Positions 1 through 35,836 of a stretch of 46,150 nucleotides of DNA are shown piece after piece. The translations under genes were made by a program, and so were the position numbers. This stretch comes from a virus. Taxonomy: Duplodnaviria > Heunggongvirae > Uroviricota > Caudoviricetes. Each line of letters opens with the position of its first letter. The stretch's first letter is position 1. The stretch covers positions 1-46,150 of IMG/VR virus record IMGVR_UViG_2695420763_000017. The stretch is one strand, 5' to 3'. The notes under the pieces were generated by a model. It made no database searches, was not told where the DNA came from, and worked only from the letters and a program-made list of their open reading frames with translations.

Positions 1-246
1 CTGATGTGTGTGCAGGATGGTCGTACTCACAAACAAATCTGCGAGATGTACAGCCGCGTCAGCCGCGATCCGTTCTGGTGCCGTAACGTGCTCAGCCCGT
101 CGAAGCTGCGGGAAAAATGGGATGAGCTTTCCCTGCGCTTATCGCCGTCCGTCAGCACGTACACAGAAAAACGCGAAGACCCGTACTTCAAAGCCAGTTA
201 CGACAACGTGGACTACAGCCAGATCCCGGCAGGATTCAGGGGGTGA
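1..246 (+). CDS. hypothetical phage protein, 3' fragment (gene begins upstream of window)
   Basis: Open frame from window edge to stop at 244-246; product not recognised; sits just upstream of the nin-like block. Confidence 0.35.
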   Translation: MMCVQDGRTHKQICEMYSRVSRDPFWCRNVLSPSKLREKWDELSLRLSPSVSTYTEKREDPYFKASYDNVDYSQIPAGFRG

Positions 247-248
247 TC

Positions 249-737
249 ATGAGTCTTTTGAATGAAGTTCAGAAATACATTGAAGCCCATCCGGGGTGTA
301 CTTCCGGAGACATTGCGGATGCTTTTGCAGGTTACTCACGGCAGCGCGTTCTGCAGTCAGCAAGCAAGTTACGTCAGAGTGGTCGTGTGGCTCACCGTTG
401 TGAAGGGGATACACGCAGACATTTCCCGCGCCTGACTGAGAGAGCGCAGGAGGCGGAACCGCAACCAGTTCGTGAAACCAGACCTGTGCGCAATTTCTAT
501 GTCGGCACTAACGACCCGCGGGAGATTTTGTGCCTGACCCGCCAGGCGGAAGAACTGGAGTCCAGGGGCTTATACCGTCGTGCTGCAACGGTGTGGATGG
601 CGGCATTCCGTGAAAGCCACTCCCAGCAAGAGCGAAACAATTTTCTTGCGCGTCGTGAGCGGTGCTTACGGAAAAGCAGCAAGCGCGCTGCATCGGGTGA
701 TGAGTGGTATCTGTCAGGGAATTACGTGGGGGCTTAA
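249..737 (+). CDS. PerC/Pch-like domain protein (putative transcriptional regulator)
   Basis: ATG 249 with AGGGGG 6 nt upstream; C-terminal half reads AEELESRGLYRRAATVWMAAF...RRERCL, matching the PerC-family signature as I recall it; stop overlaps next start (TAATG). Confidence 0.6.
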   Translation: MSLLNEVQKYIEAHPGCTSGDIADAFAGYSRQRVLQSASKLRQSGRVAHRCEGDTRRHFPRLTERAQEAEPQPVRETRPVRNFYVGTNDPREILCLTRQAEELESRGLYRRAATVWMAAFRESHSQQERNNFLARRERCLRKSSKRAASGDEWYLSGNYVGA

Positions 738-1063
738 TGACGACGTTAACTCAATGCCAGCAGCAGGTGCTGGATATGCTGATTTCTTATCAGAAAGAAC
801 GTGGCTTCCCGCCAACCAATCAGGAGGTGGCAACCATGCTGGGATACCGTTCAGTGAATGCAGCGGTGGAGCATCTTCGCGCACTGGAGAAAAAAGGCGT
901 CATCACGATAAAGCGTGGCGTGGCCCGGGGCATCACGCTTCATACCGCGGTGAAGGACGACGACAGCGAGGCGGTCGGGATTATCCGCTCACTGCTTGCC
1001 GGTGAGGAAAACGCAAGGCTGCGTGCAACCCACTGGTTACATGAGAGGGGCCTGAAAGTATGA
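737..1063 (+). CDS. LexA N-terminal DNA-binding-domain-like protein (no peptidase domain)
   Basis: QQQVLDMLISYQKERGFPPTNQEVATMLGYRSVNAAVEHLRALEKKGVI closely resembles the LexA winged-HTH; product is only 108 aa so the S24 peptidase domain is absent. Confidence 0.65.
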   Translation: MTTLTQCQQQVLDMLISYQKERGFPPTNQEVATMLGYRSVNAAVEHLRALEKKGVITIKRGVARGITLHTAVKDDDSEAVGIIRSLLAGEENARLRATHWLHERGLKV

Positions 1064-1449
1064 AGCTGATCCTGCCTTTTCCGCCCAGCGTGAACACGTA
1101 CTGGCGACACCCCAACAAAGGGGCGTTTGCAGGTAAGAGCCTGATAAGCGCGGCGGGGCGCAAATTCCAGAGCGCGGCGTGTGCAGCAATAGTTGAGCAG
1201 TTACGTCGTCTGCCAAAACCAACGTCGGCACCTGCTTCAGTGGAGATCGTGTTGTTTCCTCCGGATAACCGGATCCGCGATCTGGACAACTATAACAAGG
1301 CGCTGTTTGACGCCCTGACCCACGCGGGTGTGTGGGAAGACGACAGTCAGGTGAAAAGAATGCTGGTTGAGTGGGGACCGGTTATCCCGAAAGGGAAGGT
1401 CGAGATCACTATCAGTAAGTTCGAGAAAACGGCGGGTGCAGCCGCCTGA
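1060..1449 (+). CDS. rusA: RusA-family Holliday junction resolvase
   Basis: N-terminal LPFPPSVNTYWR and RDLDNYNKALFDALTHAGVWEDDSQV match RusA motifs; start overlaps upstream stop (ATGA). Confidence 0.85.
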   Translation: MKLILPFPPSVNTYWRHPNKGAFAGKSLISAAGRKFQSAACAAIVEQLRRLPKPTSAPASVEIVLFPPDNRIRDLDNYNKALFDALTHAGVWEDDSQVKRMLVEWGPVIPKGKVEITISKFEKTAGAAA

Positions 1450-1468
1450 TTAAGAGGAGAAACGAAGT

Positions 1469-2278
1469 ATGAATAATCTGATGGTCATTGATGGTATTGA
1501 AGTTCGTCGTGATGCTTATGGGCGTTACAGTCTGAACGATCTGCATCGCGCAGCAGTAGCATCTGGTGCAAATGCCAGAACCAAGGAGCCAGGAAAGTTT
1601 CTTTCCAGCCAACAAACTGTTGAGCTTGTTCATGAATTGACCAACACCCAGAATTTGGGTGTTGACCCGGTGAGTGTGATTCATGGGGGAAATGAACGGG
1701 GAACGTATGTCTGCAAGGAACTGGTGTATGCCTATGCAATGTGGATCAGCCCGTCATTCCATCTGAAGGTGATCCGTACTTTCGACATGGTAACCAGCGC
1801 ACCGGAAAAATTATCCGGACAGGCTGCTGACAAGATGCAGGCTGGTGTGATTCTGCTGGACTTTATGCGCCGGGAATTAAACCTGTCTAACTCTTCAGTG
1901 CTTGGTGCCTGTCAGAAACTCCAGGAGGCTGTTGGCTTACCGAATCTGGCACCGCGCTATGCCATTGATGCTCCTGCTGATGCACACGATGGCTCAAGTC
2001 GCCCGACACTGTCACTGAGTGCACTGCTGAAACAGTATGGTATCCGCCTGACGGCTAATCAGGCATATCACCAGATGGTGAAACTGGGGATCGTCGAGCA
2101 GCGCGAACGATACAGCCGTACCGCGATTAACAACATCAAAAAATTCTGGTCGCTGACAGCGAAAGGTTGCATGTTCGGCAAGAACATCACCAGTCCCGCA
2201 AATCCGCGCGAGACGCAGCCGCATTTCTTCGAATCCCGATTCCCTGAGCTGTTAAAGCTGCTCGATACCGTTCATTGA
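1469..2278 (+). CDS. KilA-N domain protein
   Basis: AGGAG RBS then ATG 1469; N-terminus IDGIEVRRDAYGRYSLNDLHRAA fits the KilA-N consensus. Confidence 0.75.
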   Translation: MNNLMVIDGIEVRRDAYGRYSLNDLHRAAVASGANARTKEPGKFLSSQQTVELVHELTNTQNLGVDPVSVIHGGNERGTYVCKELVYAYAMWISPSFHLKVIRTFDMVTSAPEKLSGQAADKMQAGVILLDFMRRELNLSNSSVLGACQKLQEAVGLPNLAPRYAIDAPADAHDGSSRPTLSLSALLKQYGIRLTANQAYHQMVKLGIVEQRERYSRTAINNIKKFWSLTAKGCMFGKNITSPANPRETQPHFFESRFPELLKLLDTVH

Positions 2279-2279
2279 G

Positions 2280-3281
2280 GTGACCGTGAGAGCACTACTG
2301 ACCCCTGAAATTGCCCCGCGTATGGGGATCGTATTGTTCAGGCCAGGTTCAGAGCTGATGCCCCTGTTTATGCAGGGGCGTGTCCTGCTGGAGCCTGAGC
2401 CGGAGCGTTATTCATCTTTCGCCAGTGGTGCCGTTCCGGCGGCATCACAACCGCTGGCGGATGATCCTGCCGTTCGGGCCGTGTTCCGCAATGAGGCAGT
2501 GATCCGTCGTGCTGGTGGCGTGGAATGTCTTGAAAGCTGGTTACTTCGTGAAAAAGGCTGCCAGTGGCCTCATTCCGACTGGCACAGCGAGAACATGACC
2601 ACAATGCGGCACGCGCCGGGCGCAATCCGTCTGTGCTGGCACTGCGATAACCAGTTGCGCGATCAGTTCACGGAACGGCTGGAATCAATGGCAACGGATA
2701 ACTGTGCCCGCTGGGTGTTATCTGTTGTGCGCCGTGATCTCGGTTTTGATGATAGTCACGTTGTGACAATGCCGGAACTGTGCTGGTGGCTGGTTCGTAA
2801 TGACCTGGCGGATGCCTTACCGGAAAGTGCAGCCCGTAAGGCACTGAGATTACCGAAGCCTGTTGTGCCGTCTGTCACCCGGGAAAGTGACCTTGTGCCT
2901 TCGGTTCCTGCCACCAGCATCATCCAGGATAAAGCGAAAAAGGTGCTGGCGCTGAAAGTGGATCCGGAGTCGCCGGAGTCTTTTATGTTACGCCCAAAAC
3001 GTCGCCGCTGGGTTAATGAAAAGTACACGCGCTGGGTTAAGACACAGCCGTGTGCATGTTGTGGAAAGCCTGCTGATGATCCCCACCACCTGATAGGTCA
3101 CGGTCAGGGTGGAATGGGAACAAAAGCGCATGACCTCTTTGTGTTGCCTTTGTGCAGAAAGCATCACGACGAGCTGCATGCGGATACCGTGGCATTTGAA
3201 GAGATGTATGGCTCCCAGCTGGAGCTGATATTTCGTTTTATCGATCGTGCGCTGGCGATCGGCGTAATTACGACAGCTTAA
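2280..3281 (+). CDS. DUF968-like lambdoid protein with C-terminal HNH-like Cys/His motif
   Basis: C-terminus CACCGKPADDPHHLIGHG...PLCRKHHDELH; position between nin genes and Q is typical; start GTG 2280 or 2286. Confidence 0.7.
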   Translation: MTVRALLTPEIAPRMGIVLFRPGSELMPLFMQGRVLLEPEPERYSSFASGAVPAASQPLADDPAVRAVFRNEAVIRRAGGVECLESWLLREKGCQWPHSDWHSENMTTMRHAPGAIRLCWHCDNQLRDQFTERLESMATDNCARWVLSVVRRDLGFDDSHVVTMPELCWWLVRNDLADALPESAARKALRLPKPVVPSVTRESDLVPSVPATSIIQDKAKKVLALKVDPESPESFMLRPKRRRWVNEKYTRWVKTQPCACCGKPADDPHHLIGHGQGGMGTKAHDLFVLPLCRKHHDELHADTVAFEEMYGSQLELIFRFIDRALAIGVITTA

Positions 3282-3302
3282 GTGTATGGAGCGCTGAGAA
3301 GT

Positions 3303-3992
3303 ATGAATCAACAAGACTTGAATTTTGTCAGAATAGAATTACGTCGTGCGCTGTTTGACTTCTCTGGGGGGACAAAAGGGCAGCTTGAGGCTTTCACTGA
3401 ACACCCACCAGCAGACAAAAATGCCACTCCACGCCGTGGAATTCATCTTGTCGAACTCGAAGGTGATAAGGGACCACGCTTTGTTAACTCGCTTTCCGCG
3501 CCATTGTACGTGCAAGAAACACGTAGCCGCCCCAGGCCAATGCCGCCGATAAAAGATGTAGAATTTGAGTCCGCGCCGTGGCGTAGGGCAGTGTCCGCGC
3601 TTAGTGGATACCAGCAGGCTTGGTTGCGGTACTGTTACGGTTTTGACCTTAACTATACGCACCAGGTGATGATGTGTGAATACGTCTGGAAGGCTTATCA
3701 GAAATGCTTGGGTGAAAACTCACTTCAGGAGCGCGTAGTAAAAAAACTAATAGGCCTAGTATGGCTTGCAGGACAGGAAATTGCTGCAACCCGAAACAAT
3801 GAAACCTATAAAGACTACGCTGGTGCGGCGCTGGCCCGTATGGTTAGCGTTGACCGTTCGACATGGTTGCGCGTCTATTCAGGCCACTGGGCTGGGTTAA
3901 AGGCCGCTTTTACCCAGCTTGATGAGTCTGCGCTGGCCATGGCTCTTGAATACTATGAGGATGAAGAAGCTCTCAAAGTGGGAGAAATATGA
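3303..3992 (+). CDS. late-gene antiterminator Q-like protein
   Basis: Position directly upstream of a promoter-like site and a strong terminator, followed by lysis genes; sequence resembles the phage antitermination Q family as I recall it (not verified); alternative GTG start at 3282. Confidence 0.55.
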   Translation: MNQQDLNFVRIELRRALFDFSGGTKGQLEAFTEHPPADKNATPRRGIHLVELEGDKGPRFVNSLSAPLYVQETRSRPRPMPPIKDVEFESAPWRRAVSALSGYQQAWLRYCYGFDLNYTHQVMMCEYVWKAYQKCLGENSLQERVVKKLIGLVWLAGQEIAATRNNETYKDYAGAALARMVSVDRSTWLRVYSGHWAGLKAAFTQLDESALAMALEYYEDEEALKVGEI

Positions 3993-4022
3993 CGTAAATT
4001 TCACTATCTCCTTCAAACGCGC

Positions 4023-4051
4023 TTGCAAAATACAACAAAATAAGCCATATT
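4023..4051 (+). promoter_or_regulatory. putative late promoter (PR'-like)
   Basis: TTGCAA (4023-4028), 17-nt spacer, CATATT (4046-4051), about 35 nt upstream of the terminator hairpin, as expected for a Q-modified late promoter. Confidence 0.3.
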
Positions 4052-4085
4052 GGAAGCATATTTGATATGTTGCCAAAGTTTTATA

Positions 4086-4110
4086 AACCCGCCGACGAGC
4101 GGGTTTTTTG
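4086..4110 (+). terminator. intrinsic terminator (tR'-like)
   Basis: AACCCGC-CGACGA-GCGGGTT hairpin followed by TTTTTT. Confidence 0.7.
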
Positions 4111-4185
4111 ATATGCGACATAACCTATAACATTTTTTATAAAATAAAATATAATTGCTTTACCATTATCCTGTGAGTTGAGCAA

Positions 4186-4971
4186 ATGTATATATTTGAA
4201 TTGACCAAACCTGGCAACTGGCTTGAAAGTGAAGACAAAGAGTGGTCTTGGAAAATAGAACGGCTTTTGGACCATCTTGAATTTGCATTTTATGAGGCTA
4301 ATGTTGCATTAAATTTATTTATGCAGCAGCAAAACAATCAAATAGAACAACAAGGGGTTTCGCAATTGCAATGGGAAAAAGAAATGCAAGAACGAAGAAC
4401 CATCGAAACACTAGTTCGTGAGGAGTTAGGTTTATCCCCTTTTGAGAATCCTGAAAACATACAATTTGAGGTGGACGCGAGGTTTAAACGAGAAAAGTGG
4501 AGTTCTGGTGAAATTCCACGTAGCCACAAACATTGTGTGATTTTTATTTATGCAAAATCTTTTCTTTATTCTCTTGATACTATTGATAAATTTATAAAGG
4601 TTATTTCGAATGAACCTTATGCTCCTGAGTCGATAAAAGCCCTACACGATCAGATAGGTAAAGATTTTCCTGATCTCAGAGGGGTTAGGAATTCAACTCA
4701 ACACCTCGAAGATAGGGCTCGAGGGCTTGGCGCAGGGAGAGAACCGAAGCCTTTGAATCTCCAGCCTATAAGTAATACCTTCATAAATGCACCGCAAGGT
4801 GCTTTGATATTAAATAATCTGAATGGCACCAAATTCGGGTCAACTATGTCTGATGGTCACTATGGTGAAGTGGACATTTCACCTGAATCGTTATCAAAAA
4901 TGCAAAGTATTGTTCAGGGCGTACTTGACTCGTTTAAGTGGGTTGGTAATCAGCAACACTTACCAAGTTAA
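4186..4971 (+). CDS. hypothetical moron protein with HEPN-like R-x4-H motif
   Basis: 261-aa AT-rich ORF with its own TATAAT (4150-4155), bracketed by two terminators; motif R168-NSTQ-H173; product otherwise unrecognised. Confidence 0.7.
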   Translation: MYIFELTKPGNWLESEDKEWSWKIERLLDHLEFAFYEANVALNLFMQQQNNQIEQQGVSQLQWEKEMQERRTIETLVREELGLSPFENPENIQFEVDARFKREKWSSGEIPRSHKHCVIFIYAKSFLYSLDTIDKFIKVISNEPYAPESIKALHDQIGKDFPDLRGVRNSTQHLEDRARGLGAGREPKPLNLQPISNTFINAPQGALILNNLNGTKFGSTMSDGHYGEVDISPESLSKMQSIVQGVLDSFKWVGNQQHLPS

Positions 4972-4993
4972 CTAAACTTAATTATTCATATTA

Positions 4994-5020
4994 AGGCTGC
5001 CATATGGCGGCCTTTTTATT
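4994..5020 (+). terminator. intrinsic terminator
   Basis: AGGCTGCC-ATAT-GGCGGCCT hairpin followed by TTTTTATT. Confidence 0.65.
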
Positions 5021-5064
5021 CCCTTCACTTTTGAGAGGATTCACAGCAATTAAGAGGGGGCTAA

Positions 5065-5451
5065 ATGTCCGATCCGATTTCCGGCACAGGGTTAGCTGCT
5101 GGAGTCCTGACAGGCGCTAGTGTTTATGGACTGCTGACCGGAACTGATTACGGTGTTGTATTTGGCGCATTTGCAGGGGCTGTATTCTACATCGCAACAG
5201 CAGCAGATCTGAGTTTATCGCGTCGACTGGCATATTTTATCGTGTCGTATATTGCCGGAATCCTTTGCTCTGGGTTGGTTGGCTCCAAGCTGGCAAACTT
5301 GACCGGATACAGTGATAAACCTCTGGATGCTATTGGTGCCGTAATCGTCTCTGCTTTAGCCGTTAAAATCCTGACGTTTCTGAATAACCAGGATATCGGT
5401 TCGCTGGTGGCGCTTATAACGCGCCGGGGAGGTTCAGGTGGAGCTAAATGA
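5065..5451 (+). CDS. holin-like membrane protein
   Basis: Strong RBS AGAGGGGG; 128 aa with several Gly/Ala-rich hydrophobic helices; first gene of the lysis cassette. Confidence 0.65.
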   Translation: MSDPISGTGLAAGVLTGASVYGLLTGTDYGVVFGAFAGAVFYIATAADLSLSRRLAYFIVSYIAGILCSGLVGSKLANLTGYSDKPLDAIGAVIVSALAVKILTFLNNQDIGSLVALITRRGGSGGAK

Positions 5452-5719
5452 CCCGACAGCAACTATAAATGCGCTGTTATGTGCTTGTGTTGTTATTACT
5501 CTGATGTTTTATCGTCGTGGTGATTCGCGGCATCGTCCTTGGGTTTCACGTTTAGCCTGGCTGATTACTGTTACATACAGTGCTGTTCCGTTGGCCTATC
5601 TCTGTGGGATTTATCCCCATTCCTCATGGCCCATTATCGTGGCGAATACTATTTTTCTTTCCGTGCTGGTGGCCGTCAGAGGCAACGTTGCACGTCTGGT
5701 TGATCATCTGAGGCACTAA
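5438..5719 (+). CDS. holin/antiholin-like small membrane protein
   Basis: 93 aa, two to three TM helices, charged C-terminus; directly upstream of the endolysin, start overlapping it. Confidence 0.6.
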   Translation: MELNDPTATINALLCACVVITLMFYRRGDSRHRPWVSRLAWLITVTYSAVPLAYLCGIYPHSSWPIIVANTIFLSVLVAVRGNVARLVDHLRH

Positions 5720-6336
5720 TGAACCAACAATTATTTCAAAAGGCGGCTGGTATTAGCGCCGGGCTGGCTGCGCGCTGGTTTCCGCACATTGATGCTGCAA
5801 TGAAAGAGTTTGGAATCACAGCAGTTAACGATCAGGCCATGTTCATTGCACAAGTTGGGCATGAATCTGCTGGTTTTACCTCGCTGGTGGAAAGCTTCAA
5901 CTACTCGGTAGACGGGCTGAAGAAAACCTTTAGTAAACGCCTGACGCCTTATCAGTGTGAAATGCTGGGGCGTGTCGATGGTAATCAGGTAGCCCACCAG
6001 CCGCAAATAGCCAATCTGGTTTATGGTGACCGCATGGGGAATAACAGCCAGGGTGACGGCTGGAAATATCGCGGTCGTGGCCTGCTTCAAATCACCGGCC
6101 GCGAGAACTACGCCAAATGCGGTGCGGCGCTGAAGTTGGATCTGATCAGCACACCAGAGTTGCTGACACAGGAGAAACATGCAGCCCGTTCTGCTGCATG
6201 GTATTTCACATTACGTGGTTGTCTGATGTATTCAGGTGATGTTGTCCGTGTAACGCAGATCATCAACGGTGGCCAGAATGGACTGGCTGACAGAAATAGT
6301 CGTTATAACAAAGCGCGGGCGGCGTTGCTGGTATGA
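5719..6336 (+). CDS. endolysin, glycoside hydrolase family 19 (chitinase-like lysozyme)
   Basis: Motifs [27 protein letters not shown] and RVTQIINGG are typical of GH19 phage lysozymes. Confidence 0.85.
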
Positions 6337-6869
6337 CAGCGGTCTTTGCTTTTGTTCAGGCGCGGTGGAAAACAATCATTGTTTTGCTGATGTTGGCTGG
6401 TGCATTTCTTGCCGGGAACATCTGGAGTGAGCGGGGCTGGCAAAAGAAGTGGGCTGACCACAATAGCATGGAATCTTCACAGGAAGCGAACGCGCAGACT
6501 GCCGCACGCTGGATTGAACAAGGGCGCATAATTGCCCGTGATGAGGCTGTAAAAGATGCACAAGCACAAGCCGCTAAATCTGCTGCCACTGCTGCTGGCC
6601 TGTCTGCCACTGTTAGCCAGTTGCGTACCGAAGCAACAAAGCTTGCCGCACGCCTGGACGCCGCAAAGCACACCGCTGATCTTGCCGCTGCCGTCCGAAG
6701 CAAAACAACCGACGCCGACGCCGGAATGTTCGCCGACATGCTCGGAGATATTGCAGCAGAAGCTAAACGTTATGCTGGAATCGCTGACGAACGCTACACC
6801 GCCGGGATGACGTGTGAACGTATTTACGACTCGTTGAGAGAGTCAAATAACGCTATCCCCCACAATTGA
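6333..6869 (+). CDS. Rz: i-spanin (Rz-like)
   Basis: N-terminal TM helix then Ala/Gln-rich coiled-coil periplasmic domain; immediately after the endolysin. Confidence 0.75.
6556..6810 (+). CDS. Rz1: o-spanin lipoprotein (Rz1-like), embedded in Rz in the +1 frame
   Basis: ATG 6556; signal peptide with lipobox LLAC/LASC; proline-rich mature part; wholly nested in Rz in another frame. Confidence 0.65.
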
Positions 6870-6935
6870 TTTTTTATCATATTCGAACGACTATGAAGGG
6901 TGTAAACAATTATAATCCAGTGATGAATTTTTCAA

Positions 6936-7211
6936 ATGTCAAAGCAAGGATATGCAGTGAGTGGTCATAGTGATGGTTTAGCAGATATTTTGAGCATTGT
7001 AATTGTATTAGCAGTGGAACATTGGATTATCGCATCTCTCATAGTTGGTTTGATTATGTATCTAGTGGGGGCGAGCATAAACGAAAATGCTCAGACAAAT
7101 GCCGGTGCCATTGCATCGGGAATCATAGGGGTATGTGGTCAATTTATTTTTGGTTTTGGCGTTCTGGCTAGCATTATTGGGATTGTTAAATTCATTTGGA
7201 CCCACACCTGA
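6936..7211 (+). CDS. small hydrophobic membrane protein (moron)
   Basis: AT-rich 91-aa ORF with two or three TM helices; no clear SD at 6936, alternative GTG 6957. Confidence 0.45.
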   Translation: MSKQGYAVSGHSDGLADILSIVIVLAVEHWIIASLIVGLIMYLVGASINENAQTNAGAIASGIIGVCGQFIFGFGVLASIIGIVKFIWTHT

Positions 7212-7275
7212 CAGCATCACTTTAGTCAATCATAGCCTCGCAATAGCGGGGCTTTTTAACAACTGAGGTATGAGC

Positions 7276-7473
7276 ATGACAGTAGTTCTTACAGCTAAGC
7301 AGATTGAAGACCTAGCAGCATTCGCGAAAGAAGATGGTCAGCCCCAATACACCATCACCACTGGTACAATCCCGGAATTCGAAGCGGATGATGGCGAGAT
7401 TATCCCTGAATACACAGGGCTGATCGCTTACTCAGAGTCACTTGAGCACGGTGTATTGCAACTCGACGATTAG
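7276..7473 (+). CDS. small acidic hypothetical protein
   Basis: GAGG RBS 7 nt upstream of ATG 7276 (alternative ATG 7270); 65 aa, acidic. Confidence 0.45.
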   Translation: MTVVLTAKQIEDLAAFAKEDGQPQYTITTGTIPEFEADDGEIIPEYTGLIAYSESLEHGVLQLDD

Positions 7474-7536
7474 TGGCATTCAGCAGGCATTCATTAAGTG
7501 TCTGCGATAATGCTATACGTTTTTTGGGGAGTGAAT

Positions 7537-7887
7537 ATGCCACCGCGCACACCAAAGGCTTGCCGTGTTCGCGGCTGTCGCAACACCACAACAGACCCAT
7601 CTGGCTACTGTGAAAATCACAAAGGTGAAGGCTGGAAGTCCTACAAGCCTGGTCAATCACGGCAGCAGCGAGGATACGGAACAAAGTGGGAAGTCATCCG
7701 GGAGCGGATACTTAAGCGCGACAAAGGGCTGTGTCAGAACCATCTACGGCAGGCGATAGTGAAGCAGGCGTCCTGCGTGGACCACATCAAGGCGAAGGCC
7801 CACGGCGGTACTGATGAAGACAGCAACCTTGAAAGCCTGTGCTGGTCGTGTCACGCAGCGAAGACCGCGCGTGAGCGGCTCAAGTGA
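7537..7887 (+). CDS. HNH endonuclease (terminase-associated)
   Basis: CRVRGC...CENH...CVDHIKAKAHGGTDEDSNLESLCWSCH; directly upstream of cos/TerS as in HK97-like phages. Confidence 0.85.
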   Translation: MPPRTPKACRVRGCRNTTTDPSGYCENHKGEGWKSYKPGQSRQQRGYGTKWEVIRERILKRDKGLCQNHLRQAIVKQASCVDHIKAKAHGGTDEDSNLESLCWSCHAAKTARERLK

Positions 7888-7889
7888 TA

Positions 7890-8010
7890 ATTAATGTCAT
7901 CATCAGACTGGGGAGGGGGAGGTCAAATCTCTGCGACCGCGCGCCTTCCGGACTGCCCGCCCCATCGTTTTTTTATACCCGCGAAAAATGAAATTTAACC
8001 AGGAGTGCCG
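7890..8010. other. putative cos/packaging-site region
   Basis: GC-rich block (GGGGAGGGGGAGG...CGACCGCGCGCC...CCCGCCCC) between AT-rich flanks, located between the HNH and TerS genes where cos lies in HK97-type phages; positional inference only. Confidence 0.3.
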
Positions 8011-8508: not shown

Positions 8509-10238
8509 GCCGGAAATCTTACCCCAACGTAAATGCTGCAAATCAGTATGCCCGGGATGTCGTGCGCGGAAAGATTGTTGCCTGCCAGTTTGTGATTCAG
8601 GCCTGCCAGCGCCATCTTGATGACCTGATGGCGGAAAAAAGTAAGTCGTTTCGTTACCGCTTCGACAAGGACCTGGCTGAACGGGCCGCGAAATTTATTC
8701 AGCTGTTGCCGCACACCAAGGGGGAGTGGGCATTCAAACGGATGCCCATCACGCTGGAGCCGTGGCAGCTCTTTGTGATCTGCTGTGCGTTTGGCTGGGT
8801 CAATAAAGGCACCCGGTTGCGCCGCTTCCGGGAGGTGTACACCGAAATCCCCCGTAAGAACGGCAAATCAGCAATCTCTGCCGGTGTTGCCCTGTATTGT
8901 TTTGCCTGTGATAACGAGTTTGGCGCGGAAGTGTATTCCGGTGCCACGACAGAGAAACAGGCGTGGGAAGTCTTTCGCCCGGCGCGACTGATGTGTAAAC
9001 GCACACCCATGCTGACGGAAGCGTTCGGGATTGAGGTTAACGCCTCAAACATGAACCGTCCGGAGGATGGCGCGCGGTTTGAACCGCTGATCGGCAACCC
9101 AGGTGATGGTTCATCACCCCACTGTGCCGTGGTTGATGAATATCACGAGCATGCCACCGATGCGCTTTATACCACAATGCTTACCGGGATGGGGGCGCGA
9201 CGTCAGCCACTGATGTGGGCCATCACCACCGCCGGGTACAACATTGAGGGGCCGTGCTACGACAAGCGGCGGGAAGTCATCGAGATGCTCAACGGCTCGG
9301 TGCCTAACGATGAACTGTTCGGGATCATCTATACCGTTGATGAAGGTGACGACTGGACTGACCCGCAGGTGCTGGAAAAAGCCAATCCAAATATTGGCGT
9401 GTCGGTTTATCGCGAATTTTTGTTAAGTCAGCAGCAGCGTGCGAAAAATAACGCCCGTCTGGCAAACGTCTTTAAAACAAAACACCTCAATATCTGGGTG
9501 TCGGCGCGTTCGGCGTATTTCAACCTGGTGAGCTGGCAGAGCTGCGAGGATAAATCACTGACCCTTGAGCAGTTCGAGGGGCAGCCGTGCATTCTGGCCT
9601 TTGACCTGGCTCGTAAGCTGGATATGAACAGCATGGCGCGACTTTATACCCGCGAGATTGACGGTAAAACGCATTACTACAGTGTGGCCCCGCGCTTCTG
9701 GGTACCGTATGACACGGTGTACAGCGTCGAGAAAAATGAAGATAGACGGACAGCCGAACGCTTTCAGAAATGGGTGGAAATGGGCGTCCTGACCGTTACC
9801 GATGGTGCAGAGGTGGATTATCGCTACATCCTCGAGGAGGCCAAAGCGGCGAACAAAATCAGCCCGGTCAGTGAGTCACCCATCGACCCCTTCGGGGCGA
9901 CCGGGCTGTCACATGACCTTGCTGATGAAGATCTGAATCCCGTCACTATCGTCCAGAACTTCGCCAATATGTCCGATCCGATGAAAGAGCTGGAAGCAGC
10001 GATTGAATCGGGACGCTTTCATCATGACGGCAATCCCATCATGACCTGGTGTATCGGCAATGTGGTCGGCAAAAACATGCCAGGTAACGATGATTTAGTG
10101 AAGCCCGTCAAGGAGCAGGCGGAAAACAAAATCGATGGTGCGGTTGCACTGATTATGACGATCGGTCGGGCAATGCTCAAAGAACCTGACGATTTCCTCT
10201 CATCTCTTGATCCGGACGATGATCTCTTAATTCTATGA
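8505..10238 (+). CDS. terminase large subunit
   Basis: 577 aa; ATPase-like N-terminal half (KNGKSAIS Walker A-like) and nuclease-like C-terminal half; conserved position. Confidence 0.95.
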
Positions 10239-28117: not shown

Positions 28118-29671
28118 ATGGGTATTGAAAGTGAATTGATAGAATTCCTTGAGCGCAGCGTCAAAGATGGTGCGAATAAGGCTAGGGATATTGAAATTGT
28201 AAAATTCTACTATGGTCTAAATGACTCGCCTTGGCCCACATTAGATGAAACTGCAAGCCGATTTGGTGTTGGTACCAGAGAAAGAATTAGGCAGTTACTA
28301 AATTTCAAATTCCGAAATAATGTCAGCAAAAACTCTATTCCATCGCTAGGCAAAGTTATTAAAGTTTTGCAGTCCAGAGAATATTGGTTGCTCTCAGAGT
28401 TTGAAGAAGAAACTTATAATGCGGGGCTGGTCGAGAAGGAAAGCCACTTAAAGGGAATATTTAATTTAATTGAGGATGTCAACCTTGATTGTGGGTTCGA
28501 TTTTTACACTCCGGAGTTAAAGCGAGCCACGAGAAACTCGATTGTAACTAGTAAGAATATATTCTTGATCAGGAATTCTGCTATCAAGAACGTTGAAAAG
28601 TTGCTCAAAAAAGCAAAAATTCTCCCGGGACGCTGCGGTATTGCAAATTTAAATTATCTAAAAGAAGAGATGGGTCAGTACTATTCGCTCGTTTCATTGT
28701 TAATTGCAAATGCGCCTACGTCTTGGGTTAGAGTGATTGACGATAATTACTGGTATGTTTTTGAGAATAGAGATAACACCATTATCAACTACAGCGAAAA
28801 GGTTTTTGGTGTTTTTGAAAACTGTGATCCATCTAGATTGGCAGAGACATATAGAAATGCCCTTAATGGAAGGAGTAATAAGTACCCGTATCCACCAGCA
28901 GAAGTTATCGATGACTATTTAAGAAGTTCTATCTATATGATTAATACGCATTCTGGACTAAAATTCATCGGTGAAAAAAACAAGCTTAATGAGATCGAAA
29001 AAGATTTAATATCTTTTTTGGACTCTTCCGGAAGCGTCTCATTTTCAACGCTTTATAAATATTTGTTGCAAAAAGGTTATGGGAAGCCGCATATATTAAA
29101 AACTACGAATTTTTCACCATTAGTATATGTAGATAAGACCAAAGGTAGAAAACATTATATGTATAGCTTAGTTGGTCATCGAATTTCTGCACATAATAAC
29201 ACCTCAGAGATGGATAAATATGAAATTTATCTTCGTAGATTAAGAGCTCTTCTCGATGTTGGAACGGATGAGACAAGAGAGCAGAAAGCTAGAAAAGAGC
29301 AGCATATTTTACAAGAGTGGCTTTTTAAGGATAAAACGCATGAGACCTGCGCTATCTGCGGAAAAGAGTTCAGCGTAAAAACGTTAGTAACGGCACATAA
29401 AAAGCCGAGATCAGACTGCAATGATGCAGAACGCTTAGATCCATATATTGTAATGCCAGTGTGTTTGATGGGGTGCGATTATCTTTACGAAAATATGTAT
29501 ATCTATATTGACGGTACTGAAATTAAACGTGGTCTGACGTTATCGAACGCAAGGAGTGAATCAAGAGTCATTGATGACCTTGTTGGGCGAAAAGTTGAAC
29601 CAAAATGGCTTTTAGGAAATCAGTCTTATTTTCGTTCGCCTAACAAAGAATTGCAGCGGATAAGTCGCTGA
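28118..29671 (+). CDS. HTH (sigma-70 region-4-like) plus C-terminal HNH-like nuclease protein, unknown function
   Basis: AAGGAG RBS; N-terminal LDETASRFGVGTRERIRQLL; C-terminal CAICGKEF...TAHKKPRSDCNDAERLD...PVCLMGCD (about residues 410-455); AT-rich. Confidence 0.75.
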   Translation: MGIESELIEFLERSVKDGANKARDIEIVKFYYGLNDSPWPTLDETASRFGVGTRERIRQLLNFKFRNNVSKNSIPSLGKVIKVLQSREYWLLSEFEEETYNAGLVEKESHLKGIFNLIEDVNLDCGFDFYTPELKRATRNSIVTSKNIFLIRNSAIKNVEKLLKKAKILPGRCGIANLNYLKEEMGQYYSLVSLLIANAPTSWVRVIDDNYWYVFENRDNTIINYSEKVFGVFENCDPSRLAETYRNALNGRSNKYPYPPAEVIDDYLRSSIYMINTHSGLKFIGEKNKLNEIEKDLISFLDSSGSVSFSTLYKYLLQKGYGKPHILKTTNFSPLVYVDKTKGRKHYMYSLVGHRISAHNNTSEMDKYEIYLRRLRALLDVGTDETREQKARKEQHILQEWLFKDKTHETCAICGKEFSVKTLVTAHKKPRSDCNDAERLDPYIVMPVCLMGCDYLYENMYIYIDGTEIKRGLTLSNARSESRVIDDLVGRKVEPKWLLGNQSYFRSPNKELQRISR

Positions 29672-29758
29672 AGACGGTGTTATGTTGAGACTGCTAACTT
29701 CCTGTTTTTGTTGGTGTTGTCCTAACACTGTCTAATCATGATTGGTGGGCTGGCGGGA

Positions 29759-29940
29759 GTTGAAACCGCAGACACGTCGTATGCAAGAACGTGCTGCGGT
29801 TGGCTGGTCAGCTTCTGATAGTGAGAATATTGAATGATTTCAAGCTGTTATCGATTTTACGTATTTTTTGCATGAAAAGATTAGCACCTCATCCCACCGC
29901 TCCTCCATGATTTTACACCACTGTCTCTAGAGCTCTGTGT
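29759..29940 (+). repeat. leader element copy B (paralogous to 27705-27890)
   Basis: Colinear similarity to copy A including inverted repeat GCAGACACGT-N12-ACGTGCTGC. Confidence 0.55.
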
Positions 29941-30060
29941 GCCAGAAGCGGAAGTTCATACCTCTAAGTGGATATTTTGTTAAAATATGCCATCAAAATC
30001 CTTGCTACCTCATGGTTGACAGTGATAAAAGTTGCACAAATTACTGAGAGAGAAATTACA

Positions 30061-30498
30061 ATGAGTGGAGATACCTCTGAGTTTCCTAATAAACTTCCCA
30101 GAAAGCCAATTGGTTGGCGTGAAGAATATAGTGATTTTACAGGTAGTATTATATTCTATATGATATTCCCGTTGCTTCCATTACTTTTTGAGTCAATTAA
30201 CACAGGAACTCACCCTACAATACAATCATTAACAATTACTGCATCAATATACTCTTTTTCCATCGGTGTATCTTCTCGAGATAAAGCTATTTTTTGCTTA
30301 GGGATTTTTTGTGGTTTCATTCTCGCTTATCTTTACGGTAAAGTTAGTGAGCCAAAAGTTATTATATATACCTGGTACTATGTAGTTACGGTGATACTAC
30401 TGGCTGTAATATTTATATTTCATCTTCTCGAACGATTTAATAAACACGTGGTAGAATGTGAGCCTGTTTTCTCCTTTAAGTTTACGAGAGGTATGTAA
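30061..30498 (+). CDS. small polytopic membrane protein (about 4 TM)
   Basis: GAGAGAG RBS then ATG 30061 (ORF track extends to 29968); hydrophobic helices throughout. Confidence 0.55.
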   Translation: MSGDTSEFPNKLPRKPIGWREEYSDFTGSIIFYMIFPLLPLLFESINTGTHPTIQSLTITASIYSFSIGVSSRDKAIFCLGIFCGFILAYLYGKVSEPKVIIYTWYYVVTVILLAVIFIFHLLERFNKHVVECEPVFSFKFTRGM

Positions 30499-30965
30499 TG
30501 GAGGATATTATATTTATGTATGCTGGGTTGATAGTGTCTTCTTTAGCGGCAATTGTAGGCTTAGCTACATCTATCATGCATACTCGTAAAAAAGTTAAAG
30601 CTAATGAAGAGCTTGCAACTGAAATGGCAAAGAGCTTTAGTGAGCTTGAATCTATCAATAAAAGCATAGGGGATTTGGAAGCGACAATTAAAAGGATAGA
30701 TGAAGATGAATTAAAGTTAAGAATAGCAATTGAATCTTTAAAGGAAATGATTTCTGATGAAAAAAAAGAATCTAGGGATATGTTGAAAACCATCGTTAAT
30801 GATGAGGTGTTCATTAAAGTTCTTCTCGAAAGCTATAAAAAACTGGATACCCAGTCAAAGAAGGAGATTTATTTGACTTTTTCCAAGTCGACAGATAGAG
30901 GCCTTTATCGATATATAAAAAGAATAGCTTCATCAGTACTCGATAACTTAATGGTTAAAATATAA
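30498..30965 (+). CDS. membrane-anchored coiled-coil protein
   Basis: N-terminal TM helix (AGLIVSSLAAIVGLATSIM) then charged heptad-like region; start overlaps upstream stop (ATGTAATGG). Confidence 0.6.
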   Translation: MEDIIFMYAGLIVSSLAAIVGLATSIMHTRKKVKANEELATEMAKSFSELESINKSIGDLEATIKRIDEDELKLRIAIESLKEMISDEKKESRDMLKTIVNDEVFIKVLLESYKKLDTQSKKEIYLTFSKSTDRGLYRYIKRIASSVLDNLMVKI

Positions 30966-31520
30966 ATGCGTGCGCGCGAGATACAATTTCTCGCGCATTG
31001 TGTAACCGGCGACAAAACCCTGTTATCATTATAGCGACCCGTTTAGATGGGCTATTTGTGCCCCAACAGCTTCTGGGTATAGATTTCCTCGGCCCTGTAT
31101 AGATACTTTGCTAAAGAGTATTTTAATGGGATTTTGCTTACGTACCATTCTTCTAACGAATGTCTGCCTTATCCTGTGAGCTGCCTTCGCTCAGCATTGG
31201 CCTGTTTCTCGTTGATTTATATACTGCGACACTAACATAGGCGGATATGTCCGCTCCTCGCTCATAACAGACATTCACTACAGTTATGGCAGAAAGGTAT
31301 GCATGCTGGGTGGGGAAAGTATGAAGGAAAAGAAAACTGCTGCGCTGTTTGTCGTCACGTTTATCTTCATTGGCTATGCAAGTCATAATACAAGGTGGGA
31401 CAAAACTGAGACACATAAGGCCTCACAATGGCTTGCAAGGCTTTACATGTTTTGATGTGGTGGGACGTGTGAGCGCAGTGTTGATGGGGTAATGCTTTGA
31501 ATTAGAAGCGGATTCTTATA

Positions 31521-31566
31521 ATTCGTAATGCGAAGGTCGTAGGTTCGACTCCTATTATCGGCGCCA
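31521..31566 (+). other. att core: 46-nt copy of the 3' half of tRNA-Thr(CGU) (thrW-like), not an intact tRNA
   Basis: ATTCGTAATGCGAAGGTCGTAGGTTCGACTCCTATTATCGGCGCCA matches anticodon loop (CGT), variable loop, T-arm and acceptor 3' strand of enterobacterial tRNA-Thr from memory; no 5' half or D-arm upstream. Confidence 0.75.
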
Positions 31567-31732
31567 TTCTAATGTCTCCCCAAGTCTACTCAAGTATTTA
31601 AAAACCTCTTATAATCCGCATGTTAGCGCCCCTTTTAGTCTTTTGACGTCTACTTAAGTACTCCAAAATCTACAGTCAATTGGGGGTACTTTTGGGGGTA
31701 TTTGCTGTTCGGTTTAGTGGAGGTACCCCCAA

Positions 31733-32947
31733 GTGAAACTCAATGCCCGTCAAATAGACACTGCCAAGCCAAAAGAGAAGGCTTACAAGCTGGCTGATGG
31801 TGGTGGTCTGTATCTCTTGGTAAAACCTAGTGGAGGAAAATATTGGCGCTTCAAGTATCGTGTAGCTGGTAAAGAGAAGCTGTTAGCACTAGGTGTGTAT
31901 CCTGAAGTTACCTTGGCTGATGCTCGTGCAAAACGTGAAGAAGCTAAAAGGGGTATCGCTGGGGGTATCGATCCGATGGAAGCGAAACGAGAGGAAAAGA
32001 TTGCCCGGGAAACGCAGTTAAACAACACCTTCAAAGATATTGCCCTTGAGTGGCACAGCAGCAAATTAAAAAAATGGTCTGCTGGTTATGCTTCAGACAT
32101 CCTCGAAGCCTTCAACAAAGATGTGTTCCCTTACATTGGCAAAAAACCAATCGCCGAAATCAAACTACTTGAACTGCTGAATGTGCTGCGGCGCATCGAG
32201 GGGCGCGGTGCTACCGAAAAAGCCAAAAAAGTGAGGCAGCGATGTGGGGAAGTTTTCCGCTATGCAATTGTCACTGGACGTGCTGAGTATAACCCTGCAC
32301 CGGATCTCACCAGCGCGATGCAAGGTCATGAATCTAATCATTATCCTTTCCTCACAGCCAAAGAATTACCTGATTTTTTCAAGGCATTGTCCAGTTACTC
32401 AGGAAGTGCATTGGTTGTTATGGCGGCTCGTTTACTGATTATCACCGGTTTGCGGACTGGCGAACTGCGCGGTGCATTATGGGATGAAATCGATCTCAAC
32501 AAGGCTATCTGGGAGATACCTGCTTCACGGATGAAAATGCGTCGCCCTCATGTAGTGCCTTTGTCTGAGCAGGCTCTTTCGCTTATTGGGCAGATTAAAG
32601 AACTAACTGGCAATTATCCGCTTATGTTTCCCGGCCGTAATGATCCAAGGAAAACAATGAGCGAGGCTAGCATAAACCAAGTATTTAAACGCATCGGCTA
32701 TAACGGAAAGGTTACTGGTCATGGCTTCCGGCACACTATGAGCACCATTTTGCATGAGCAGGGCTATAACACCGCGTGGATAGAGACACAGCTTGCGCAC
32801 GTCGATAAAAACTCAATTCGTGGCACATACAACCATGCGCAATATCTGGATGGGCGGCGGGAAATGCTTCAGTGGTACGCTGATTATATGGATTCGCTCG
32901 AGCATGGCGGAAATGTGGTGCATGGTGAGTTCGGAAAATGCGGGTGA
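31733..32947 (+). CDS. int: tyrosine integrase, P4 family
   Basis: GTG 31733 with GGAGG RBS; N-terminal arm-binding motif GGLYLLVKPSGGKYWRFKYR; catalytic region with HGFRHT and terminal tyrosine region; immediately downstream of the att core. Confidence 0.95.
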   Translation: MKLNARQIDTAKPKEKAYKLADGGGLYLLVKPSGGKYWRFKYRVAGKEKLLALGVYPEVTLADARAKREEAKRGIAGGIDPMEAKREEKIARETQLNNTFKDIALEWHSSKLKKWSAGYASDILEAFNKDVFPYIGKKPIAEIKLLELLNVLRRIEGRGATEKAKKVRQRCGEVFRYAIVTGRAEYNPAPDLTSAMQGHESNHYPFLTAKELPDFFKALSSYSGSALVVMAARLLIITGLRTGELRGALWDEIDLNKAIWEIPASRMKMRRPHVVPLSEQALSLIGQIKELTGNYPLMFPGRNDPRKTMSEASINQVFKRIGYNGKVTGHGFRHTMSTILHEQGYNTAWIETQLAHVDKNSIRGTYNHAQYLDGRREMLQWYADYMDSLEHGGNVVHGEFGKCG

Positions 32948-33075
32948 CTGGTTGAGTATACAGTAGTAGACTTTGAGCGACGAAAGAAAAGGCTGTGTCT
33001 AGGGTCGCTCCCGAAAATCCGTACACCTCGACGGACTGGTACAGCCACTACAGTAGAGGACGCTGAGGTGTGCGT

Positions 33076-33873
33076 ATGATTGATATTCATGCCGAATTAA
33101 ACGAATACAAAAAAGATTTTATTTCTTTACGTGAATTTCTTGAGGTCGTGCTTAAGGTCGCTGGTGATGATTATGATGTTTCAGATGTCATAACTTGGAT
33201 ACTCAGGAGAATAAGCGGAGAACATATCCGCCTGTACACAGTAAATGAATTTAAGCTGTTGGAATCTTTTTGTAACCCGTATCGGGATGAATTTGATAAT
33301 GATGTTCTTTATAGAAATCTGAATGCGGTTCGGAAACGTGGTTGTTTACCTGGTGAGAGGGATGAAAATGGTTTTCTGGTGTCCGGTTATTGGGAAGATC
33401 CCGAATTTGAGAACATTGGATTTATAAGGGGTGAAATTTTCGCAATTTTTCCCGATGTCCTTGACGCGTTAACGAAGCTGGAAGGCGCTAACTCTTCTGA
33501 AAATGACGAGGCACAAGGACGCGATATTGAAAAGAAAGAGTTGCGTACAGAGGATGATTTATTATCCCAAATCGCAATGCTGGAAAAAGAAAACGCAGAG
33601 TTAAGGGCAAGGATAGAGCAGTTAGAGCAAGAGCGCCCGATACACTTATATAAATACTGGGATAAAGACCCATTAGCTAAGGCTATTGAGATTAGAAACA
33701 GAGAGTGGGCCAATTACGATCCAGAAAATGATTTTGCCACCAGGGGAAATCAAGAAGCGATAACCAGGGAGCTTAAGCAGTGGGGGGCAAGTAATGCACT
33801 TGCAACGCTCATAGAGAGGACTGCCTGCCCTATTAACCGAGACAACAGCCAAAAGAACGCAAAGCCGGATTAA
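33076..33873 (+). CDS. hypothetical acidic coiled-coil protein (cargo next to int)
   Basis: GAGG RBS then ATG 33076; central EKENAELRARIEQLEQE coiled coil; unrecognised. Confidence 0.6.
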   Translation: MIDIHAELNEYKKDFISLREFLEVVLKVAGDDYDVSDVITWILRRISGEHIRLYTVNEFKLLESFCNPYRDEFDNDVLYRNLNAVRKRGCLPGERDENGFLVSGYWEDPEFENIGFIRGEIFAIFPDVLDALTKLEGANSSENDEAQGRDIEKKELRTEDDLLSQIAMLEKENAELRARIEQLEQERPIHLYKYWDKDPLAKAIEIRNREWANYDPENDFATRGNQEAITRELKQWGASNALATLIERTACPINRDNSQKNAKPD

Positions 33874-33888
33874 CGCACCATACCGCAT

Positions 33889-34034
33889 ACCCTGAGGGTG
33901 ATTTACTGTTACCCTGAGGGTATTTTTTTATCTTCCCCGTCAATTTTACCATCACCCTTAGGGTAGATTTCCTCCCGATTACCATCACCCTTAGGGTAGA
34001 TTTCCTTCCGGTAACCATTAGGCCTGAGGGTATG
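33889..34034. promoter_or_regulatory. array of five palindromic sites ACCCT(G/T)AGGGT (putative operator)
   Basis: Sites at 33889-33899, 33911-33921, 33955-33965, 33988-33998 and a variant near 34023; two lie in a 26-bp direct repeat ACCATCACCCTTAGGGTAGATTTCCT. Confidence 0.5.
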
Positions 34035-34100
34035 AAAATATTCGTTATTTCTGTGCCATGATTACCTCGTCAAATTGAGTAGACGTTATGAGGTAAATAT

Positions 34101-34298
34101 ATGTCAAATACGCTTATTCGTTTAACAGAAGTTCAGCGTAGAACTGGATATAGCAAGGCATGGATTTATCGCCTTATGGGGCAAGGTAAATTTCCTGCAT
34201 CAGTTAAAATTGGCTCGCGAGCTATTGCTTTCGTTGAGAGTGAAATTGACGAGTGGATTAATCAGCGTATTGCGGAATCACGCGGAACAGCTACCTGA
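34101..34298 (+). CDS. alpA: AlpA-family transcriptional regulator / excisionase-like protein
   Basis: GAGG RBS; LIRLTEVQRRTGYSKAWIYRLMGQGKFPASVKIGSRAIAFVESEIDEWI matches the AlpA HTH family. Confidence 0.85.
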   Translation: MSNTLIRLTEVQRRTGYSKAWIYRLMGQGKFPASVKIGSRAIAFVESEIDEWINQRIAESRGTAT

Positions 34299-34375
34299 TT
34301 AAATGGCTACGGGGCTATTGCCCCCAGCTATCCACCAGCAAATAAAAGTAACTTAATTCGATAGCAGGAGTTTTT

Positions 34376-35176: not shown

Positions 35177-35635
35177 CGCTCTGACCGTTACAAAAAGAGA
35201 AAGCGCCCCGTTGCCGGAGCGCCTTTGTGAACGAATAGCCTACTGCGCCATATTGCTTACTGTCTACGAGGCAGATTATAGCGTTGTGGTCGCACAGAGT
35301 GAAGGCGCTGATCACCGTTACTACAGCACGCCAGAAATGCAGAATATTTTGCTGCAAAATGTCGTTGGTCACACTGTCCGGAAAGCAAAAAATTTTGCTG
35401 GTGGCGCGACTGATGCGATTTTGTCAGGTCGCCAGGTGCTGATCAATCTGATGTCTGATTTCGTTCTGGATAAAACAAAGGCGACCGCAGAGGGCCGCCA
35501 GTGGGAAAGCTACATACCTGAACGCATCGCCAACAATGCCAGATTTACGGCTGGTGGGCAATGTGTCAGCTTTGCACCAATGACTCTATGTTTAACTGAG
35601 GGTCATTATGGTGAATATGCTGGCTTGCTGGTGGG

Positions 35636-35836
35636 CTATTCCTGCTCTTTAACATTGCCATGCCGCGATGTTTTCCAGGTATGCGACCCCATTTTTGTGC
35701 GCCTGTACTCTTTAAGGAATTTCTCAAGGACAAACGCACAGGGCGCGAATCTGTCTGACTCATGCTCGTACGCTATCTTTCTGCGCTGTCTTTTCCGTGC
35801 CGGTGATGGTGTATTGGTTGATTCTTTGTTGGTCAT
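35636..35836 (-). CDS. small hypothetical basic protein
   Basis: Minus-strand ORF downstream of the RHH gene; ends in the same ...KEQE-stop and shared 17-bp DNA repeat; could be non-coding. Confidence 0.3.
   Translation of the reverse strand: MTNKESTNTPSPARKRQRRKIAYEHESDRFAPCAFVLEKFLKEYRRTKMGSHTWKTSRHGNVKEQE

Follow-up and report, generated by a model that had tools for sequence, protein, structure and literature searches.

We describe a gene at positions 737-1063 (+ strand) of a 46,150-nucleotide viral sequence (Duplodnaviria; Heunggongvirae; Uroviricota; Caudoviricetes; IMG/VR record IMGVR_UViG_2695420763_000017, positions 1 to 46,150; hereafter the window), whose 108-amino-acid product joins a LexA-type DNA-binding domain to a short helical tail and lacks the S24 peptidase domain. 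Our preferred interpretation, put forward tentatively, is that this protein may be a RecA-insensitive, dimeric LexA-type binder of CTGT-type operators that is made during lytic growth of a lambdoid, SfV/mEp460-like prophage. The gene is real, is under selection and is of a known kind, the S24-less LexA-domain phage regulators, for which there is one characterized analogue, in a Gram-positive tectivirus. Its sequence places it in a family that is already annotated, both as PHROG 362 and by the Prokaryotic Genome Annotation Pipeline (PGAP), with names that come from annotation alone, and our literature search found no functional study of the coliphage PHROG 362 family.

A LexA-type DNA-binding domain without the peptidase domain

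The open reading frame (ORF) is complete, running from an ATG at 737 to a TGA at 1061-1063 on the + strand, and its product begins MTTLTQCQQQVLDML and ends HERGLKV. The mechanically called ORF opens earlier, at a GTG at 704; the ATG at 737 is the start in all homologues and aligns with LexA residue 1. Residues 1-65 matched the Pfam family LexA_DNA_bind (PF01726) with an E-value of 2.9e-19 and 69 bits, against a score cutoff of 23.7 bits, and all 65 model positions were covered, while a phmmer search of the PDB aligned residues 2-69 with the DNA-binding domain of Escherichia coli LexA (1lea, E=6.9e-16). The similarity to the PF01726/LexA domain is therefore far above chance and the gene coordinates are exact. 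An AlphaFold2 monomer model of the protein, built from an alignment of 24 sequences with a mean predicted local distance difference test (pLDDT) score of 79, has the LexA topology of three helices and a two-strand wing, and Foldseek superposed its residues 1-68 on DNA-bound E. coli LexA (3jso) at 1.3 A over 68 columns with 50% identity. The predicted winged helix-turn-helix (HTH) occupies residues 1-69 (737-943, + strand), with helices at residues 6-22, 28-35 and 40-52 and wing strands at 56-58 and 66-68. These matches confirm the initial annotation, which had described a 108-residue product whose first 70 residues or so follow the LexA winged HTH.

The same annotation had noted that the S24 peptidase domain was missing and had considered the protein non-cleavable, and both statements held. 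The protein stops at residue 108 and has no Pfam match to Peptidase_S24. Besides, the NCBIfam equivalog model for lexA (TIGR00498) was matched only at positions 1-91 of 203, with 70.8 bits, below its curated cutoff of 110.95 bits. An Ala-Gly dipeptide at residues 88-89 was aligned by HMMER with A84-G85 of LexA (VGIIRSLLAGE in the phage protein and VGRVAAGE in LexA), and it was considered as a site for cleavage in trans; relatives carry AN, VG or unrelated residues at this place, and the candidate was rejected because the dipeptide is not conserved in the family and is at most a vestige. The lack of both the S24 catalytic domain and a conserved cleavage site supports the view that the protein would be non-cleavable by its architecture.

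The recognition helix

The recognition helix corresponds, according to the alignments, to residues 39-53 (851-895, + strand) and reads SVNAAVEHLRALEKK, where E. coli LexA has SPNAAEEHLKALARK. Ten of these 15 residues are identical in the two proteins, a higher identity than in the remainder of the domain, and the shared pattern is SxNAAxEHLxAL. The residues through which E. coli LexA binds DNA have been given as S39, N41, A42, E44 and E45 (PMC13416735, citing Knegtel 1995), a set that we took from this secondary source. At these five positions the phage protein has S, N, A, V and E, so that four are kept and E44 is replaced by valine. Position 44 is non-acidic across the whole phage family, and the loss of the acidic residue reads as a family signature. 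Several distant subfamilies carry SPNAAAEHLKAL, in which E44 (changed to A) is the sole difference from LexA, and some subfamilies have diverged further at positions 42-45. Moreover, K53 and the wing residues R64-G65-I66 (RGI) are invariant in relatives down to 40% identity.

The C-terminal tail

Behind the DNA-binding domain, residues 70-108 (944-1060, + strand) were delimited from the AlphaFold2 model, conservation and the ratio of nonsynonymous to synonymous substitution rates (dN/dS). They comprise a linker predicted with low confidence (residues 70-75) and an amphipathic two-helix hairpin (residues 74-87 and 93-102), the pLDDT being about 89 for residues 80-100. The tail residues are conserved in the close family, and they remain so, to about 40% identity, among the short relatives that an exhaustive HMMER search recovered; the conserved pattern is A-h-x-h-h-R-x-L-h-A...AR..A...L...G (h, hydrophobic residue). 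No homologue of residues 70-108 was found by sequence in the PDB or by fold, and this part of the protein lies outside the coverage of the LexA structures. The segment that aligns with the LexA cleavage region is predicted to be helical, in contrast to the strand present in LexA.

We infer from the model that the hairpin may be a dimerization module that stands in for the S24 domain. The exhaustive search also recovered S24-less proteins in which the LexA_DNA_bind domain occurs twice in tandem, as in a single-chain pseudo-dimer (P0156, P0159 and P0163, of about 160 amino acids, as well as P0132, P0149 and P0155, the last of them fused to a PTPS-like domain). These tandem-domain proteins show that a second copy of the domain can be obtained by other routes, as an alternative to the lost LexA dimerization domain.

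Selection, prevalence and annotation

The gene as a whole had a dN/dS of 0.085 among 48 distinct alleles of the 108-residue type; the value was 0.033 in the DNA-binding half (codons 1-69) and 0.195 in the tail (codons 70-108), and in a subfamily of 106 residues (71 alleles) both halves had values of 0.22-0.23. Since both halves are under purifying selection, the gene is functional, with its tail included. The length of the product stays at 104-108 amino acids in the family, and residues 1-108 matched positions 1-106 of the 106-position profile of PHROG 362 ("transcriptional repressor") with E=1.1e-59.

The gene was found with at least 95% nucleotide identity in 50 GenBank phage records, among them SfV (orf42), SfII, SfIV, mEp460 (mEp460_046), cdtI, Kati and phages encoding the Shiga toxins (Stx) Stx2a, Stx2c and Stx2k. 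The window protein is 100% identical to that of phage Kati and 98-99% identical to those of mEp460 and SfV. In addition, 2233 of 5426 complete E. coli genomes carry the gene, with up to four copies per genome, under the PGAP/RefSeq name "LexA family transcriptional regulator". A survey of Stx phages reported a pfam01726-only pham with the same name, which is probably the same family (PMC8136144). Small S24-less LexA-domain proteins are also frequent in the predicted viral proteomes of phages of many hosts, and variants that are fragmentary or fused are numerous in databases. As for a place of the gene in a defence system, PADLOC gave just a weak, generic HTH match, and this assignment was rejected.

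Proposed mode of action

Starting from the domain, its fold, the missing protease, the selective constraint and the operon position of the gene, a sequence of steps can be proposed. The hairpin tail would take over the dimerizing role of the LexA C-terminal domain, through which LexA dimerizes (PMC9578287), and would give a stable dimer that RecA* could not inactivate. The protein would also differ from the N-terminal cleavage fragment of LexA in having no exposed C-terminus that ClpX recognizes. The dimer would bind SOS boxes of the CTGT-N8-ACAG type, as is suggested by the retention of N41 and E45 in a recognition helix almost identical to that of LexA. SOS-box promoters might in this way be kept or put back under repression in lytic growth, when host LexA has already been cleaved. 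Candidate targets would be host SOS genes, functions of rival mobile elements that are under SOS control, and SOS boxes present in the genomes of related phages.

Published work on LexA gives a framework for this proposal. The N-terminal domain alone retains some SOS-box binding and repression, and its elimination by ClpXP is needed for full SOS induction (PMC10584840). In sulA-lacZ assays the unfused DNA-binding domain of LexA serves as the negative control and gives no repression, while the same domain fused to any dimerizing protein is an efficient repressor (PMC7160566). By analogy, the phage protein resembles a naturally occurring fusion of this type, and judging by its sequence it could plausibly mimic LexA by occupying SOS boxes. 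The further suggestion of the initial annotation, that phage or host SOS genes would be decoupled from RecA-mediated induction, is speculative, and our literature search yielded no support for it.

A broader version of this proposal, which we regard as doubtful, is that an uncleavable LexA surrogate present in about four of every ten E. coli genomes, among them those that carry Stx2 phages of O157:H7, would re-repress SOS boxes cleared by RecA* after prophage derepression. In that case host SOS functions would be switched off, as would the induction by SOS of rival prophages, colicins and integrons, and the protein may also act on boxes within the repressor, methylase and KilA-N genes of the phage itself.

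SOS boxes in related loci and in the window

Related loci were scanned with a position weight matrix (PWM) for SOS boxes, a box being a site scoring at least 18 bits. Among 82 loci carrying the lexA-like gene, 43 had at least one box, and the boxes comprised seven distinct sequences at about five positions, compared with 0.35 hits expected by shuffling. As controls, 80 lambdoid loci with a DLP12-type rusA and without the lexA-like gene, with a similar amount of non-redundant sequence, contained one box. Besides, 15 of the 16 box-bearing cI contigs also have the lexA-like gene. The boxes lie in a cI-like S24 repressor gene, in the first codons of an N6/N4 methylase gene past Q, in the gap between rusA and KilA-N, in a divergent intergenic region and near an integrase gene.

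The box embedded in cI, for example TACTGTATGTAAAAACAGTA, was found in mEp460 (locus L002, 1546-1565) and in locus L295 (3449-3468), as well as at 465-484 in ST64B (L374), Kp4871-1 (L375), phiNP (L376) and Flotzy (L377), and it recurs in the loci of a lexA-like subfamily whose products are 44% identical. It sits in the otherwise hypervariable linker between the HTH and S24 domains, where the protein reads T-V-[C/Y/H]-x-x-S, and both half-sites are kept in four host genera and in proteins with 68-100% identity to one another; the box occurs whether or not the lexA-like gene is present. To our knowledge, an SOS box within cI has not been described before. Its presence at identical codons of cI in four phages that have no lexA-like gene led us to reject the co-occurrence of SOS boxes as evidence specific to the gene.

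A second box, TACTGTAAAAATAAACAGTG, covers codons 3-9 of the N6_N4 DNA methylase gene mEp460_053, past Q, at 10597-10616 of L002 and in 25 other loci, about +4.6 kb from the lexA-like gene; at the methylase position the window has a different gene (4186-4971, PHROG 5322) without a box. A third, TACTGTATTTATGAACAGTG, was seen in five related loci (for example, L021 at 10114-10133 and L055 at 7880-7899), where it lies in a spacer of 70-100 bp that separates rusA from a variant form of the KilA-N gene, an arrangement that resembles LexA-controlled antirepressor promoters; the KilA-N gene of the window (1469-2278) begins 19 bp after rusA and has no box. LexA boxes are thus wired into these phage lineages, which is compatible with action of the protein on SOS boxes and does not demonstrate it.

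In the window, the best PWM site was GACTGGTTGAGTATACAGTA (32946-32965, 18.1 bits), the sole site above the 95th percentile of the maximum score in shuffled sequence (17.1 bits), and it falls at the 3' end of an integrase gene that belongs to a second element. A perfect palindrome, CCAGCAgcaggTGCTGG, is present at 757-773, inside codons 7-13 of the lexA-like gene, and in 78 of the 82 related loci; it probably reflects an mRNA hairpin or arises as a side effect of the conserved codons for QQQVL.

Operon and genome context

The lexA-like gene lies in a lambdoid operon between the replication genes and the antiterminator gene Q, beside rusA. The window opens within a replication gene of the O-like type, of which it holds the 3' end, followed by a PerC-like gene of 164 amino acids (243-737, + strand; Pfam PerC, E=1.2e-9), whose TAA overlaps the ATG of the lexA-like gene in the sequence TAATG (735-739). 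Downstream, the start of the gene for the RusA Holliday-junction resolvase (1060-1449, + strand; Pfam RusA, E=6.6e-15) overlaps the TGA of the lexA-like gene as ATGA. The next genes identified with Pfam, all on the + strand, encode a KilA-N protein (1469-2278), a DUF968/HNH protein (2280-3281) and Q (3282-3992), after which come lysis, head and tail genes. These start and stop overlaps indicate that the lexA-like gene is translationally coupled to its neighbors. The scan revealed no promoter-like site upstream of the gene, and on the + strand the terminator-like stems inside the operon were weak and no better than many chance matches, with a clear terminator at 4085-4106, beyond Q. In the annotation of mEp460 the operon begins at cro. 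From this position we would expect an early or delayed-early lytic gene that is silent in a repressed lysogen and whose product is made only once the prophage has been derepressed or a cell infected.

The order DNA methyltransferase, lexA-like gene, rusA, antirepressor-like gene (KilA-N or Rha/ANT), DUF968 and Q is kept in the 44%-identical subfamily (L295). Most relatives have a Dam methylase cassette of about 654 bp between the PerC-like and lexA-like genes; it is cleanly absent from the window, and SfIV shares this Dam-less order.

PerC/Pch proteins are activators of the virulence regulon LEE (locus of enterocyte effacement) in enteropathogenic and enterohemorrhagic E. coli (EPEC and EHEC). 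A second PerC-family gene is found in the window at 40757-41044 (+ strand), and the gene at 243-737 is a longer, divergent form. The last 20 kb (26192-46150), with all genes on the + strand, are other than the SfV-like phage and look like a P4-like satellite or island. This region encodes a hexapeptide acetyltransferase (26192-26881), the tyrosine integrase of the second element (31733-32947), AntA (34376-35176), a D5-type primase-helicase (38041-39846) and a ProQ/FinO protein (40218-40760), and at 44.4-46.1 kb it carries phage-like genes that are 86% identical to a Klebsiella phage. No tRNA genes were found in the window.

Alternative explanations

Several observations weigh against the proposal that the protein binds SOS boxes. 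Among the changes in the recognition helix relative to LexA are E44V and P40V, and either could retarget the domain, because one or two changes sufficed in gp6, the truncated LexA homologue of the tectivirus GIL01. The window contains no exact CTGTN8ACAG, and sites with one mismatch occur at the level of chance (15 versus 14.2 expected); moreover, the PWM, which was built from SOS boxes, detected none within the window's phage portion. Among related loci, the commonest box, which is in a cI-like clade, is found equally in ST64B, Klebsiella Kp4871-1, Citrobacter phiNP and Flotzy, all without the lexA-like gene, and the independent box sites number about five in the gene-carrying loci versus one in the controls. 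Finally, the basis for a dimerizing tail is a monomer model.

The main alternative, which in our view is somewhat unlikely, is that the protein is a phage-specific transcription factor whose LexA-derived domain has been retargeted to a private palindrome and activates or represses a phage promoter, for example in the timing of late or accessory genes, without acting on SOS boxes. The precedent also counts against SOS-box binding, since gp6, the only characterized truncated LexA homologue of a phage, recognizes an operator of its own and switches on late genes (Fornelos et al., 2018; PMC6182141). At three of the five equivalent positions gp6 agrees with Bacillus LexA, yet it has a new specificity. 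The systematically non-acidic position 44, the greater divergence of some subfamilies at 42-45, the lack of an SOS box in the window phage and the abundance of small S24-less LexA-domain proteins in phages of many hosts all fit this explanation. On the other hand, no candidate private operator emerged: no intergenic palindrome between -3.5 and +4.5 kb of the gene was common to both subfamilies, and an inverted-repeat scan of window positions 1-8000 revealed no convincing intergenic palindrome. Furthermore, the positions altered in gp6, the equivalents of N41 and E45, are those retained in the coliphage protein, which favors a retained LexA specificity, and the recognition helix is closer to E. 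coli LexA than the rest of the domain.

It is improbable that the protein, instead of being a transcription factor, binds DNA as a helper in phage replication, recombination or methylation and works together with RusA or a Dam-type methylase, for example to target or occlude certain sites. The conserved order of methyltransferase, lexA-like gene and rusA between subfamilies, with overlapping start and stop codons, could be expected of such a partnership, and the winged-helix domain has weak PHROG matches to families of O-like replication initiators. However, RusA is widespread without the lexA-like gene, as in the 80 control loci, the Dam cassette is dispensable, being absent from the window and SfIV, conserved order is common in phage early operons without functional coupling, and the sequence gives no pointer to a protein partner.

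We consider very improbable a modulator of the host SOS response that acts through protein contacts, either as a heterodimer with LexA, as the initial annotation had suggested, or by using its LexA-like linker and tail to titrate RecA* or LexA. The HMMER alignment does run into the linker and cleavage-site region of LexA, and there are phage proteins, GIL01 gp7 among them, that bind LexA. Nonetheless, a heterodimer is unlikely because LexA dimerizes through its C-terminal domain, which the phage protein lacks (PMC9578287). Ala-Gly 88-89 and the residues around it are not conserved in the family, the counterpart of the cleavage region is predicted to be helical, and purifying selection is strongest in the DNA-binding domain. 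Finally, a decaying, functionless remnant of a captured lexA, which the truncation and the many fragmentary or fused database variants might suggest, is effectively refuted by the dN/dS values in both subfamilies, the constant length, the presence of the gene in 2233 E. coli genomes, the conservation of the tail to 40% identity and the translational coupling.

If the binding of SOS boxes is true, induced lambdoid and Stx prophages would carry a RecA-proof off-switch for the SOS regulon, which would have a bearing on the induction of Shiga-toxin phages, on how co-resident mobile elements compete and on the mutagenesis that SOS drives under antibiotics. If the domain has been retargeted as in GIL01 gp6, the family would be a further case of phages reusing the LexA head as a private regulator. 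Under either reading, E. coli genomes and Stx phages carry the gene extremely often.

Comparison with known systems

The closest counterparts are the other members of PHROG 362 (SfV orf42, mEp460_046 and the genes of SfII, cdtI and Stx2 phages), which encode the same protein with 95-100% identity over the full length, at the same operon position. In relation to E. coli LexA (1lea, 1jhh and 3jso), the likeness consists of the winged HTH, with about 50% identity over residues 2-69 and 1.3 A, the SxNAAxEHLxAL pattern, K53 and the RGI wing, with weak similarity into the linker. The phage protein differs in lacking the S24 Ser-Lys protease and dimerization domain and the conserved Ala-Gly site, in the substitutions E44V and P40V, and in its novel helical hairpin tail of about 35 amino acids; besides, it is encoded in a phage operon, is not autoregulated by SOS boxes of its own and scores below the NCBIfam lexA cutoff.

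The N-terminal fragment of LexA (residues 1-84) is likewise a DNA-binding domain without the C-terminal domain and shows partial SOS-box binding and repression (PMC10584840), but it exposes a ClpX signal and is degraded fast. The phage protein would be expected to be stable because its C-terminus is different (ERGLKV) and a folded tail has been added. The fusions of LexA residues 1-87 to dimerizing proteins that are used in bacterial one- and two-hybrid assays (Dmitrova/Daines-Silver; PMC7160566) share with it a LexA head joined to a heterologous oligomerization module and the lack of cleavage; they are artificial and contain the authentic E. coli domain, whereas the phage domain is 50% diverged and the dimerizing role of its tail is proposed from the model.

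The only characterized analogue, gp6 of the Bacillus thuringiensis tectivirus GIL01, is a truncated LexA homologue that is 44% identical to the N-terminal domain of host LexA (Fornelos et al., 2018; PMC6182141). It binds GaCACAnnTGTGaC and not LexA boxes, at a site that overlaps the -35 element of the late promoter P3, where activation takes place alongside host LexA (PMC6182141). Both proteins are phage-encoded products of early genes, have a LexA DNA-binding domain without the protease and were presumably captured from a host lexA. The differences are that gp6 has 66 amino acids and no C-terminal tail, and that in the domain alignment it is changed at the equivalents of N41 (the essential K38) and E45, where the coliphage protein is LexA-like. 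BLASTP of gp6 against the window protein gave no alignment at E<=100, so that the generic domain alignment alone holds, and their sequences point to independent derivations, that of gp6 from the Gram-positive LexA lineage.

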